From positions 17,790 through 81,789 of the forward strand of contig CAVUFF010000002.1 of assembly GCA_963740655.1 (NCBI GenBank): DNA of 64,000 bases, written 5' to 3'. A program made the translations under genes and the position numbers. The notes under the pieces were generated by a model. The model searched no databases and was not told the origin of the DNA. It saw only the letters and a program-made list of their open reading frames with translations. The first letter of the stretch is position 1. Every line of letters begins with the position of its first letter. The stretch is from an uncultured Acidobacteriota bacterium (lineage in GTDB: Bacteria; Acidobacteriota; Vicinamibacteria; Fen-336). Positions 6,641 to 17,684 of the stretch are shown here, in pieces.

Positions 6641-6712
6641 GCCCAACAATGCGTTGCAGCTGACGAAGCCGGCGCAAGCGATGGAGCTTCGCAGCTGAAC
6701 GCAGTGTTCTGC
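6641..6712 (+). repeat. attC-2 (class C arms: AATGCGTT(G)CAGC / GCTGAACGCAGT; R'' GCCCAAC, R' GTTCTGC)
   Basis: Same architecture and central GACGAAGCCGGCGCAAGCGATGGAGCTTCGCAGC as the other copies, but both outer arms are changed in a complementary way. Confidence 0.75.
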
Positions 6713-6753
6713 GGACATGCTGGGTGGAGGAAGCGCTCGCTGAGCCAACCTGC

Positions 6754-7140
6754 ATGAGAACTCGAGTTGCCCACATGGTCGGGGTAGCTGCCTTGGGAAT
6801 CCTGCTCCTGTCGTGTAGTGACGACTGCCGCGGTATCGAGAGCGCGAGTTGTGCCCCGCAGTTGGTGATCAGAGCCACAATTTCGAGTGCCGCTGACGGC
6901 GGGCCGGTACAGAACGTGTTGCTGCAGGTATCGAGTGGTGCCCCGACCATGTGCTCGATTGAAACCAAGGTCACCGTGTGCGATGTGTGGGGCTTTTCAG
7001 GTACCTTTACGCTCGTCGTGGCTGCTCCGGGCTTCCAGAGTACCGAGCGCGACATCACCGTCAAGGGCGAGAACCGCCCATGCAGCTGCCCGATAGCGGT
7101 CAGAGAGAACGTGGCGGTGTCACTGTCACCCATCCCTTGA
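6754..7140 (+). CDS. Hypothetical lipoprotein, cassette ORF
   Basis: MRTRVAHMVGVAALGILLLSC: signal peptide with lipobox. Cys-rich beta-type sequence. No family recognised. Confidence 0.55.
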   Translation: MRTRVAHMVGVAALGILLLSCSDDCRGIESASCAPQLVIRATISSAADGGPVQNVLLQVSSGAPTMCSIETKVTVCDVWGFSGTFTLVVAAPGFQSTERDITVKGENRPCSCPIAVRENVAVSLSPIP

Positions 7141-7190
7141 GGACCAGGTCGAGCTAGTGCAGGTCAGCTCGTCCGTACGAAGACCGAGCC

Positions 7191-7263
7191 GCAGAACAAG
7201 GGGATGAAGCAGACGAAGCCGGCGCAAGCGATGGAGCTTCGCAGCTTATCCCCGGTGTTCGAC
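7191..7263 (+). repeat. attC-3 (class A; R' GTTCGAC)
   Basis: GCAGAACAAGGGGATGAAGCAGACGAAGCCGGCGCAAGCGATGGAGCTTCGCAGCTTATCCCCGGTGTTCGAC. Confidence 0.8.
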
Positions 7264-7316
7264 CGACCGAGAGGACCCCACCGGGCAGGCCGTGCTGCTA
7301 GGCTGACGCCCTGCTC

Positions 7317-7614
7317 ATGGATGCTCCGACCTTCGAGTGGGATCCGGCCAAGGCCGCTGCCAACGCCAAGACGCACGGCGTGTCGTTCGAGGAGGCGGTC
7401 ACCGTGTTTCAAGACCCCTCTGGCAAAGGTTTTCCCCGATCCCGACCATTCGGAGGCCGAGCGTCGCGAGATTCTGATCGGTCATTCGGCGCAGGTTCGC
7501 CTATTGCTCGTGGCGTTCACCGACCGGCAGGGTAAGATTCGCTTGATCAGCGCCCGGAAGGTCACCCGGCGCGAGCGTCGAGATTATGAAGAAAGCCAAC
7601 AAGCCACTTCCTAG
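7317..7614 (+). pseudogene. brnT: BrnT-like toxin (DUF497), frameshifted near 7415-7425
   Basis: [34 protein letters not shown], then in another frame [58 protein letters not shown]. Confidence 0.7.
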
Positions 7615-7852
7615 GGCCTCGGACGATCTCAGGTCCGAGTACTCGTTCGACTATTCCAAGGCGAAGGCAAATCCCTATGCAGCGCAGCTCAAGGGCCGCA
7701 CCGTCGCAGTCGTCCTGGAGCCCGATGTAGCGGCTGCTTTCCCGAACTCGAAGGCCGTCAACACGCAGCTGCGGGCCGTCGTCGCCGCGGTACCGAGACG
7801 CTCGCGAAGACGCGTCGCTCCCCGAAGGCGAGGCGGTCGAACAAGGGGATGA
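7586..7852 (+). CDS. brnA: BrnA-like antitoxin
   Basis: ..DLRSEYSFDYSKAKANPYAAQLKGRTVAVVLEPDVAAAFPNSKAVNTQLRAV. Overlaps the brnT 3' end. The stop lies inside the attC GGGGATGAAGC. Confidence 0.7.
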   Translation: MKKANKPLPRASDDLRSEYSFDYSKAKANPYAAQLKGRTVAVVLEPDVAAAFPNSKAVNTQLRAVVAAVPRRSRRRVAPRRRGGRTRG

Positions 7853-7906
7853 AGCAGACGAGCGTTGAGCGTATTGGACGCTCGCAGCTTATCCCCGGTG
7901 TTGGGC
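7836..7906 (+). repeat. attC-4 (class A outer arms; inner stem variant AGCG/CGCT; R' GTTGGGC)
   Basis: GTCGAACAAGGGGATGAAGCAGACGAGCGTTGAGCGTATTGGACGCTCGCAGCTTATCCCCGGTGTTGGGC. Confidence 0.8.
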
Positions 7907-7923
7907 CGACTTGAGGTGAGGTC

Positions 7924-8394
7924 GTGAAGAAGGCGAAGGCAGATCCGGCAGTCGACAGCAGGCCTCCGAGCGCGCGAGAAGTCTCTACTCTACTTGGCAG
8001 GTCGCACGCCGCGTTCGTCGCCCTCACGCAGCGCGGATCCGGAGTGACGTGCGAATGGAAGCGCTACACTAAGACGTCGCCATGGACCCTGAAGGTCAGC
8101 GAAGGCGATCGGACGCTCCTTTACGCTACTCCCAAGGCCGACGCCTTCGAGGCAACGGTTATTCTGGGCGAGCGCGCGACGGAGGCCGCACTGGGCGGGC
8201 GTGTCTCGAAAAGGCTCCACGCATCTATACGGGCCGCCAAGTCGTATGTAGAGGGGCGTGTCGTGCGTGTCACGGTTAGGGGCCAGGCCGACGTTGCTGC
8301 TGTCGAGGAGCTCGTAGCTGTCAAGCTCAAGCCAACTGGCGGCACAAGTGACGCATCCTCGGGGAAGCGACGGCGCGGCCCAACAAGGGGATGA
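7924..8394 (+). CDS. DUF3788-like protein, cassette ORF (GTG start)
   Basis: 156-aa ORF; ..CEWKRYTKTSPWTLKVSEGDRTLLYATPKADAFEATVILGERA...YVEGRVVRVTV. Family call is from memory. Confidence 0.5.
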   Translation: MKKAKADPAVDSRPPSAREVSTLLGRSHAAFVALTQRGSGVTCEWKRYTKTSPWTLKVSEGDRTLLYATPKADAFEATVILGERATEAALGGRVSKRLHASIRAAKSYVEGRVVRVTVRGQADVAAVEELVAVKLKPTGGTSDASSGKRRRGPTRG

Positions 8395-8450
8395 AGCAGA
8401 CGAAGCCGGCGCAAGCGATGGAGCTTCGCAGCTTATCCCCAGTGTTGGGC
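8378..8450 (+). repeat. attC-5 (class A; R'' GCCCAAC, R' GTTGGGC)
   Basis: GCCCAACAAGGGGATGAAGCAGACGAAGCCGGCGCAAGCGATGGAGCTTCGCAGCTTATCCCCAGTGTTGGGC. Confidence 0.85.
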
Positions 8451-16489: not shown

Positions 16490-16503
16490 ATAGCGAGGGA
16501 GCT

Positions 16504-16576
16504 GTCGAACAAGGGGATGAAGCAGACTAAGCCGGCGCAAGCGATGGAGCTTCGCAGCTTGTCCCCAGTGTTGTCC
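16504..16576 (+). repeat. attC-12 (class A; R' GTTGTCC)
   Basis: GTCGAACAAGGGGATGAAGCAGACTAAGCCGGCGCAAGCGATGGAGCTTCGCAGCTTGTCCCCAGTGTTGTCC. Confidence 0.8.
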
Positions 16577-16629
16577 CGATTCCTCAAGGGCGACGCGCTG
16601 TCCTGACGTGACAAGGCATTTGCCCGAGT

Positions 16630-17025
16630 GTGCATGTGGACCTCCTGCTCGAGATCCTGTTTCAGCTCATCATCGAGGTCGGGTTGGACGCAGGTCTCGA
16701 GATGCTTACCGACAGCGGCGGCGCCAAGTCCCGCAGCGTTCCCGAGGTAACGGATAGCTGGCTCTTCGTCATCACTCGTCTCTTCGTTGTAGGGGCGCTC
16801 TTGGGTGGGCTGAGCTTACTGTTCTGGCCAAAACGAACTGTGTCACCAGGACCCATCCCCGGCCTAAGCTTGATACTGGCTCCCGCTGCCGTCGGTGCCG
16901 TCATGCACCTCTGGGGTAAGTATCGAACTGCGCGTGGCCACGCCACGACTACGCTCGCCACGTTCGCAGGCGGTGCCGCATTCGCTCTCGGGACCGCGGT
17001 GGTACGCTTCCTTGGTGCGCACTAG
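16630..17025 (+). CDS. Hypothetical small membrane protein, cassette ORF
   Basis: 131-aa ORF with about 4 hydrophobic helices. No family recognised. Confidence 0.5.
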   Translation: MHVDLLLEILFQLIIEVGLDAGLEMLTDSGGAKSRSVPEVTDSWLFVITRLFVVGALLGGLSLLFWPKRTVSPGPIPGLSLILAPAAVGAVMHLWGKYRTARGHATTTLATFAGGAAFALGTAVVRFLGAH

Positions 17026-17062
17026 GCGATGCAGATCATGAAGGTCGCCTGAACACGATGCG

Positions 17063-17132
17063 GGACAACAAGGAGTTGAAGCTGACGAAGCCAAGCGTAT
17101 TGGAGCTTCGCAGCTTATCCCCGGTGTTGTGC
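17063..17132 (+). repeat. attC-13, chimeric (class B left arm, class A right arm; R' GTTGTGC)
   Basis: GGACAACAAGGAGTTGAAGCTGACGAAGCCAAGCGTATTGGAGCTTCGCAGCTTATCCCCGGTGTTGTGC. Confidence 0.8.
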
Positions 17133-17163
17133 GGACTTCCGCGAGTGCCAGCAGGCGGCTAGA

Positions 17164-17391
17164 ATGGCTAGCGGAGGTGGCTGGGTGACGTTCCAGGTTG
17201 AACTCGAGCGCGAAGCAGACGGGCGCTGGATCGCCGAGGTCACCGACTTGCCTGGTGTCCTCGCCTACGGCGCCACGCAGGACGAAGCCCAAGCCAAGGT
17301 GCAAGCCCTCGCCCTACGAGTTATGGCCGAGCGACTTGAGCATGGCGAAGCCGGCCCTCAACTTCTGGACATCTCCTTTCGAGCGGCGTGA
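17164..17391 (+). CDS. hicB: HicB-like (UPF0150) antitoxin
   Basis: ..WVTFQVELEREADGRWIAEVTDLPGVLAYGATQDEAQAKVQALALRVMAERLEHGE. Confidence 0.7.
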   Translation: MASGGGWVTFQVELEREADGRWIAEVTDLPGVLAYGATQDEAQAKVQALALRVMAERLEHGEAGPQLLDISFRAA

Positions 17392-17601
17392 CCAACTGGC
17401 CGAGCACCAAGGCGCAGAGGGTGCTCGCAGCGCTGCTGCGTATCGGCTGGACCGTAAAGCGTCAATCGGCTTCGCATCGCACGCTTTCTCGGGAAGGCTG
17501 GCCCGACTTCGTTATTCGCCTTTCATGATGGCGACGAAATCGGTCCGCAAATGCTGGCCCGCATCGCCAAGCGAACTGGGTTGACCCCTGGTGATCTCTA
17601 G
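17388..17601 (+). pseudogene. hicA: HicA/YcfA-like toxin, frameshifted near 17513-17515
   Basis: GTGA overlap with hicB. VTNWPSTKAQRVLAALLRIGWTVKRQSASHRTLSREGWPDFV, then after a 1-nt shift FAFHDGDEIGPKMLARIAKRTGLTPGDL-TAG. Confidence 0.65.
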
Positions 17602-17612
17602 AACACGATGCC

Positions 17613-17684
17613 GCACAACAAGGAGTTGAACCTGACGAAACCCGGTAAACTTCGGAGCTTCGCAGCTTAACTCCAGTGTTGGGC
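17613..17684 (+). repeat. attC-14 (class B; R' GTTGGGC)
   Basis: GCACAACAAGGAGTTGAACCTGACGAAACCCGGTAAACTTCGGAGCTTCGCAGCTTAACTCCAGTGTTGGGC. Confidence 0.8.

Follow-up and report, generated by a model that had tools for sequence, protein, structure and literature searches.

How can an attC recombination site come to combine the left arm of one sequence class with the right arm of another? The origin of attC sites, as well as their homogeneity and diversification within an array, is an open question in integron biology. It is raised in a particular form by the stretch of DNA analysed here, 64,000 nucleotides at positions 17790-81789 of contig C2 in genome G000, which is called the window throughout. 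The window holds the distal portion of a very large sedentary chromosomal integron cassette array, and two of its attC sites combine a left arm of class B with a right arm of class A. With moderate confidence we favour a combined reading, in which the window represents such an array, the attC arms co-evolve in discrete classes, and the hybrids arose by exchange between co-resident attC sites, neither through the integrase nor by independent mutations. That the hybrids stem from exchange between attC classes is likely when all mechanisms are taken together. Two old attC classes, hybrids of a single polarity and identical attC-targeting insertion sequences (IS) in one genome amount to a natural experiment, which can show whether attC halves are exchanged, which machinery is responsible, and how far the integrase tolerates mismatches in the bottom strand.

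Hybrid sites and arm classes

Class A arms (GGGGAT(G)AAGC / GCTTATCCCC) are read at 7191, 7836, 8378, 15710 and 16504, class B arms (GGAGTT(G)AAGC / GCTTAACTCC) at 9771, 10502/13626 and 17613, and class C arms at 6641, as distinguished in an earlier note made from the letters of this DNA alone; the class C arm pair TGCGTT/AACGCA occurs in relatives as well. The two chimeras proposed there, at 9000-9070 and 17063-17132, indeed have a left arm of class B and a right arm of class A. Two further hybrids of the same kind are located elsewhere in the genome, one free of IS at C11:335646-335718 on the minus strand and one bearing the element ISc at C11:328171. About 13 left arms of class B type are present in the genome, four of which (about one third) face a class A right arm and six a class B right arm. 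The reverse hybrid (left arm A, right arm B) was not found in this genome.

The B-left/A-right pattern is absent from all 77 other genomes of the order. Among the matches listed in the metagenome sample (120 contigs with a class B left arm, about 150 sites), this arm is followed by TTAACTCC in 118 cases, by TCATCCCC in one and by TTATCCCC in none, and the hybrid accounts for at most one of these roughly 150 class B left arms. Pure B/B and A/A sites are each spread over several genera. The four hybrids have four different centres, each of which is also found on pure sites elsewhere. Runs X1, X3 and X4 contain DNA nearly identical to that of this genome. A separate B-left/A-right attC with the centre CCATGAGCATATTGAAGG is present in Logan contigs of runs X3 and X4, and other arm-discordant sites were observed in relatives at L015:4289, at L021:6181 and in G031 (class A left, class B right). 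The hybrids are real, derived, genome-specific and recurrent; they are a genuine and unusual trait of this genome, for which four independent double substitutions are implausible.

By established integron biology, the bottom strand of attC is the strand that is recombined; the sites analysed here bear on this only indirectly, in that the mismatches they tolerate are G.T on this strand. The two stem mismatches predicted for the chimeras are found on the top strand (A.C and T.T), whereas on the bottom strand they amount to one G.T wobble and one A.A. When folded, the bottom strands of the hybrids reach -16 to -17.6 kcal/mol, compared to -22.5 kcal/mol for a clean class A and -24.7 kcal/mol for a clean class B site; some 'pure' sites fold no better than the hybrids.

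A dedicated covariance model was built for the attCs. All 41 complete sites have the form NNNNAAC ... GTTNNNN, and in the 40 aligned sites A5, A6, C7, G63, T64, G65 and T66 are invariant, as is the bulged G (G16, 40/40), in agreement with the fixed position that had been noted for it. The covariation, suggested earlier as a check, was counted on the structure defined in this analysis, with the alignment of the relatives fitted to the model. In the 40 sites of this genome 94.2% of the cells are paired and ten pairs are changed on both sides, a signal far above that of the controls (none of 500 shuffles as high; 32-48% in slid controls). Among 150 attCs of relatives 20 of 25 pairs are changed on both sides, and 97.7% of the outer-stem cells are paired, so that double mismatches are rare. 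At least 19 distinct, fully paired outer-stem haplotypes are found there, including GGGGAT/ATCCCC, GGAGTT/AACTCC, AGAGTT/AACTCT, GCGGAT/ATCCGC, TGCGTT/AACGCA, TGGGTT/AACCCA and GGAGAT/ATCTCC. The inner stem switches as a unit from GAAGC/GCTTC to GAGCGT/ACGCTC at 7836 and 15710, the latter version being the commonest one upstream in the array. Selection on the fold, which the earlier note had proposed, is borne out by the covariation here and in relatives and by the number of paired haplotypes. Its statement that every left-arm change is mirrored on the right was too strong, with single unpaired or wobble positions at 14085 (AACCCC), 14648 (GACTCC) and 16504 (GTCCCC).

That attC stems covary is well established, and the IntegronFinder model is built on it (10.1101/030866). 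The covariation, the array and the IS family are thus known biology and no discovery. As the integrase would recognise the folded bottom strand, the arms would be expected to co-evolve, and several discrete arm classes (A, B, C and others) coexist. The attCs form one family common to the genus and family of the host, in which class A is the majority and class B the minority type in this genome.

The class C site at 6641-6712 and the class A site at 7191-7263 share an identical centre of about 31 nucleotides (nt) and differ at many paired positions of their arms, and the same centre recurs with GCGGAT/ATCCGC arms in G013 (L015:6133). Most attCs of G012 (L017, L018; C16:64001-104000) have class A arms around a long centre of about 128 nt (GAAGCTTTCGGCGGCA...GGACGCGGGCACCGCTTCGCAGC), and a site of G000 at C11:328786 (L006, about 4757-4900) has a right half of this long-centre type. 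Centres and arms are reassorted across the attC family.

Insertion sequences and the position of the class switch

An IS110/IS1111-type element, ISa, is inserted at GCAGCT|TA in both attC-0 (921-4023) and attC-8 (10553-13628), as had been noted before. Further ISa copies are located at L005:4830-6453 and L006:12325-13948. Except for two different nested DDE-type elements, the four copies agree in all of their 1,624 bp (100% identity), and together with ISc they all occupy GCAGCT|TA in a single orientation and without target duplication; a related element is found at the same place of an attC in metagenome contig L036. The ends of ISa read GATATGGCACGCCCC... and ...GGGGCGTGCCATATGGTC; its inverted repeats (ATATGGCACGCCCC/GGGGCGTGCCATAT) are sub-terminal, one end having additional bases, and in its intact copy about 312 nt lie downstream of an open reading frame of 425 amino acids. 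A scan of the last 214 of these nt for a guide segment yielded only a 7-nt match (GCGAAGC). In two copies the nested DDE elements lie in or next to this 3' non-coding region, from which the guide RNA is encoded in the IS family; these two copies may be immobile. Logan contigs skip from 10614 to 12067 in the copy residing in attC-8.

Domains PF01548 and PF02371 match ISa, ISb and ISc. ISa and ISc fit the IS1111-attC group, to which ISPst6, ISKpn4 and ISPa21/25 belong (Tetu & Holmes 2008, Post & Hall 2009, as cited in PMC11187229). Its members share with ISa and ISc a DEDD transposase with the IS110/IS116/IS902 C-terminal domain, sub-terminal inverted repeats, additional bases at one of the ends, and a transposase gene followed by a long non-coding stretch. 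Like ISa and ISc, they enter attC close to one of its ends, always at the same position and in the same orientation, without target duplication. In contrast to the listed members, ISa and ISc are new elements. Neither discordant flanks nor hybrid attCs have been described for the group in the literature searched.

The other element, ISb, extends upstream of the window to C2:17258, and a sister copy encodes a transposase with matches to DEDD_Tnp_IS110 and Transposase_20. Its three copies (window 1-879; L005:14421-15848; L006, about 9040-10539) are inserted at a fixed point inside the class A left arm, and attC-0 was struck by both ISb and ISa. ISb was rejected as the switch point, as an insertion at GGGG|ATGAAGC would split left-arm positions that are kept together in the hybrids.

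The class switch had been placed between GCTTCGCAGC and TTAxCxCC. The right bound holds, whereas the left bound is given only by the class-specific base in GC(T)GAC. Class A arms occur with GCTGAC, not GCAGAC, in G012 and G013, and this 'third' difference between classes A and B is therefore not tied to the arm class. Centres of the TATTGG and CTTCGG types are found with A/A arms in G015, G012 and G001 and with B/B arms in metagenome contigs; since the centres are not class-specific, the switch may lie anywhere in the 35-38 nt between GC(T)GAC and TTA(T). The CT of GCAGCT|TA, which is the core of the IS site, lies at the right edge of this interval and at the edge of TCGCAGC, which is the longest invariant run of the family and is followed by a nearly invariant TTA. 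That the switch lies exactly at the IS site is thus not shown by the sequence. Both an RNA-guided IS and a homology-guided switch would be expected at the invariant run, so that the coincidence does not discriminate between them and is not evidence for a route via the IS.

Integrase crossover at G|TT is unable to produce such chimeras, as the earlier note had stated and as the established crossover position implies. Cleavage by the integrase at the L box, as well as cleavage of the top strand, was rejected too, since the predicted junctions (inside the left arm or at R'') do not fit.

The flanks of the five IS-bearing attCs are AGAGTT-type/class B, class A/ATCCTC, B/B, AGAGAT/class A and B/A. 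The first pair belongs to ISa copy 1; in G015 its AGAGTT-type left arm, where it comes with the same centre, has AACTCT as its partner in every case. The B/A pair belongs to ISc. A perfect outer stem is found in one of five IS-bearing but in 32 of 41 IS-free attCs (Fisher p=0.018), and class-discordant flanks in two to three of five compared to three of 41 (p=0.08 to 0.01). Relaxed selection after insertion was rejected as the main cause, because the four ISa copies show no substitution over 1,624 bp; arm discordance is therefore not the result of slow decay after insertion. Either the IS would prefer imperfect sites or the flanks of the IS have been exchanged. A link between hybrids and IS is only suggested, and the discordant or imperfect IS-bearing sites are the best evidence for the idea put forward in the earlier note.

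Two attCs, at L008:1906-1982 (C2:282906) and at L006, about 8437-8492 (C11:332492, minus strand), are longer by six bases where the IS inserts (GCAGCTT-CTGCTT-ATCCGG). A tandem duplication of six bases or a scar may account for this, and one of the two attCs is a lone site far from the arrays. The sequence GGGTGGTCTCAAGTGAAC adjoins attCs at one recurrent place (..TTATCCCCG|GGGTGG.., with R' replaced) in three genomes, namely at L005:8121 onward, at L012:6965, 8326 and 9051, and at L021:6181. In G000 it is followed by transposase genes of the IS256/Mutator family, and it may represent another attC-associated element. In class B attCs of the metagenome (two sites in L088, one each in L098 and L115) GTAGCGCAGCC..GGCCGCAACCCAA follows CGCAGC, at or beside the IS1111-type position.

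Origin of the hybrid sites

In the origin preferred here, attCs of different class residing in the same genome would have exchanged DNA at some point between their left and right arms. Repeated independent point mutation is unlikely, since the hybrid is present four times in this genome, in none of the 77 others, and in at most one of about 150 metagenomic arms among the matches listed. Even if mutation had produced the hybrid only once, later exchange would have to be assumed, because the four hybrids possess four centres that are each found on pure sites. For the exchange itself we infer two candidate routes, which the present data do not separate. The first would proceed via events at the IS1111-type element, inserted 3 nt from the right arm, either by recombination between identical 1.6-kb copies or by repair of an excision gap from another attC; in either form it is the right arm that would be replaced. 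The second would be independent of the IS, with gene conversion or a template switch taking place within TCGCAGCTTA, the invariant run.

In the IS-mediated route, identical IS1111-type copies in attCs of different class would recombine, by RecA or by the IS recombinase joining the left end of one copy to the right end of another, to give a left(X)/IS/right(Y) product with loss of the intervening cassettes, and excision would then leave the hybrid. In a variant, proposed by inference only, the excision gap would be repaired from another attC, usually of class A, thereby converting the adjacent right arm. Such events would account for the exchange of the right arm alone, hence the polarity of the hybrids, and for the majority class as partner. 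The CT core and the first base of the right arm that tells the classes apart are 3 nt from each other, the identical ISa copies offer perfect homology, imperfect stems are enriched at IS-bearing sites (p=0.018), the flanks of ISa copy 1 are discordant, and those of ISc are B on the left and A on the right. However, several rare events are needed per hybrid, ISc is present as a single copy in the assembly, the flanks of ISa copy 3 are a concordant B/B pair, and the IS may have entered pre-existing hybrids. Precise excision is uncertain as well: with ISEc11 of the IS1111 family, no re-joined target was detected once circles had formed (PMC11187229), whereas for IS492 of the IS110 family precise excision at high frequency is reported in a paper that PMC11208160 cites. 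The sequence of IS recombination and precise excision put forward in the earlier note finds a counterpart in the IS-occupied discordant sites, but its parental cassettes were not found in 16 congeners. Taken singly we consider this route possible but rather unlikely. Its generalisation, that IS1111-type attC-targeting elements swap the adjacent arm by copy recombination or gap repair and so constitute a new route of array evolution, is unlikely on present evidence; if true, hybrid recombination sites would be made, blocks of cassettes would be deleted or moved, and every cassette boundary would be a potential breakpoint, since these elements recognise the most conserved run of attC.

Without participation of the IS, template switching during replication or short-tract gene conversion between neighbouring hairpins could take place in GGAGCTTCGCAGCTTA, and selection on the bottom-strand fold would subsequently remove the reverse hybrids. 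This possibility, doubtful when considered by itself, agrees with the position of the longest invariant run of the family, TCGCAGC(TTA), with the occurrence of the same centre in combination with A/A, B/B, C/C and D/D arms, and with the arm-discordant sites of relatives (L015:4289, L021:6181 and G031). It is also in line with the polarity, as the bottom strand of a B-left/A-right site contains G.T and A.A, that of the reverse hybrid A.C and T.T. On the other hand, the shared block of about 16 nt is short for RecA-dependent exchange, relatives with mixed A and B sites (G015, G013) have no B-left/A-right hybrid, and the enrichment of discordant flanks at IS-bearing sites is left unexplained. The hybrid might instead be a compensatory intermediate between A and B, tolerated via the bottom-strand G.T and multiplied along with new cassettes, and single-step neighbours are present (GGAGTT/AACCCC at 14085 and AGAGAT/ATCCCC at C11:338001); only three of the four arm combinations occurring in the genome would fit as well. 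Yet the hybrid is restricted to this genome, in contrast to the old B/B and A/A pairs with their wide spread over genera, and the four centres of the four hybrids each match B/B or A/A sites elsewhere, which renders such a lineage improbable. An assembly artefact, i.e. wrong joining of cassettes inside the repeated attCs of a metagenome-type assembly, appears highly improbable in view of an A/B shared block of only about 16 nt, the intact complementarity of R' to the next R'' around both hybrids of the window, and the B-left/A-right attC in Logan contigs of other runs.

The preferred origin by exchange has to be weighed against several findings that speak against it. A chain of single-step states exists, namely GGGGAT/ATCCCC, AGAGAT/ATCCCC, GGAGTT/ATCCCC, GGAGTT/AACCCC and GGAGTT/AACTCC, in which AGAGAT/ATCCCC is the closest stand-in for the unobserved step GGAGAT/ATCCCC, and a mutational route is therefore not impossible. 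As each centre type of the hybrids is found with A/A as well as with B/B arms, neither the switch point nor the direction of exchange can be fixed. The counts are small (four hybrids compared to no reverse hybrid, and five IS-bearing sites), and the genome is an 86%-complete assembly of metagenome type. Finally, parental or IS-occupied alleles of the three IS-free hybrids were found neither in the congeners nor in the short Logan contigs. In a DNA search of 16 congeners the cassette DNA at 8451-9070 and 16577-17132 matches only attCs, and none of the parental cassettes expected from the earlier note was found in these genomes. The Logan contigs of four runs are short pieces that break at attCs, and none of them spans an empty attC-8 or an IS-occupied hybrid site. 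A chimera still carrying the IS, which had also been proposed for comparison, does exist in the ISc-bearing site at C11:328117-326616 (B left, A right).

The array and its relation to known integrons

A search with a profile made from the window attCs revealed about 55 attC sites in the genome (4.99 Mb, 71% G+C, 11 contigs); an Rfam scan of the window gave no match, Rfam having no attC family. The first array extends over C2:239-37237, and the share of the window in it ends at about 19.4 kb. A second array is found at C11:340088-325764, in addition to a few lone sites elsewhere. No intI gene is located within the window, but the genome encodes three integron integrases, each above the TIGR02249 cut-off. 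One (C11:341389-342339; L006:17389-18339) is divergent from the second array in the usual layout. The other two are arranged in tandem at C11:892262-894204 (L007:2262-4204) in the same direction as the cassettes, in an 'inverted' layout, and precede an array that runs off the end of C11. This array probably continues on C2, the end of C11 (894769-898360) being the probable start of the C2 array. The closest IntI relatives (74-84% identity) come from metagenome-assembled genomes labelled Acidobacteria or Vicinamibacterales, and the host, a soil bacterium, probably belongs to the phylum Acidobacteriota, order Vicinamibacterales. Of 61 related genomes, 50 contain the same attC family, and G012, G013 and G015 have large arrays of it.

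In class 1 model attC sites the extrahelical base beside the L box is a G on the bottom strand, whereas it is a C here. Otherwise the sites resemble those of sedentary arrays such as the Vibrio cholerae repeats (IntegronFinder, 10.1101/030866) in their R''/R' cores (RYYYAAC/GTTRRRY), in the imperfect L''/L' repeats with extrahelical bases, in the single attC at the 3' end of each promoterless cassette, in the similarity of attCs along a long array with intI adjacent, and in the complementarity of the R'' of a cassette to the upstream R' remnant. Unlike those arrays, the present one mixes several discrete arm classes, its host is probably an acidobacterium, and one integron has two tandem intI genes in cassette direction. 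When the literature speaks of 'chimeric' or 'hybrid' attC, it refers to the six final bases (TTRRRY), which are normally swapped by integrase crossover (10.1101/030866; PMC8946536); only the name is common, since here the whole right arm (L' and spacer) is of the other class.

Table 1. attC sites and insertion sequences of the window, in window coordinates.
Feature	Position	Strand	Basis or remark
ISb 3' part, IS110-family, cuts attC-0 left arm at GGGG|ATGAAGC	1..879	-	flanks of three copies
attC-0, remaining left arm and centre (ATGAAGCAGAC..CATATTGGAGCTTCGCAGC)	880..920	+	sequence reading
ISa copy 2, IS1111-type, at GCAGCT|TA of attC-0	921..4023	-	nested DDE-transposase IS ~1232-2710
attC-0 right arm with R' (TTATCCTCGGTGTTAGGC); resembles class A except for one transition	4024..4041	+	
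attC-1 left part, class A; interrupted by IS3-like element	4811..4833	+	sequence reading
IS3-like element in attC-1	4834-6084		target duplication AGA
attC-1 centre and class A right arm	6085..6137	+	
class C attC (TGCGTT/AACGCA)	6641..6712	+	centre identical to adjacent class A sites
class A attC, inner stem GAAGC/GCTTC	7191..7263	+	
class A attC, inner stem GAGCGT/ACGCTC	7836..7906	+	
class A attC	8378..8450	+	bottom-strand fold -22.5 kcal/mol
hybrid attC: left arm class B, right arm class A	9000..9070	+	bottom-strand fold -16.1 kcal/mol
class B attC	9771..9842	+	bottom-strand fold -24.7 kcal/mol
attC-8 class B left arm and centre	10500..10552	+	
ISa copy 3, IS1111-type, in attC-8	10553..13628	-	nested DDE-transposase IS ~10615-12066
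attC-8 class B right arm and R'	13629..13645	+	
attC, left arm class B, right arm AACCCC	14085..14157	+	bottom strand: lone G.T wobble
class B attC, right arm GACTCC	14648..14719	+	
class A attC, inner stem AGCGT/ACGCT	15710..15780	+	
class A attC, right arm GTCCCC	16504..16576	+	
hybrid attC: left arm class B, right arm class A	17063..17132	+	left arm and centre identical to attC-8
class B attC	17613..17684	+	

The complementarity between the R' remnant and the next R'' fails at two places of the window, at 13639/14085 (GTTGGAC vs GCCCAAC, within 13629-14157) and at 14713/15710 (GTTCGCC vs GTCGAAC, within 14720-15780). These breaks in the R'/R'' chain suggest that attCs were lost or cassettes fused there.

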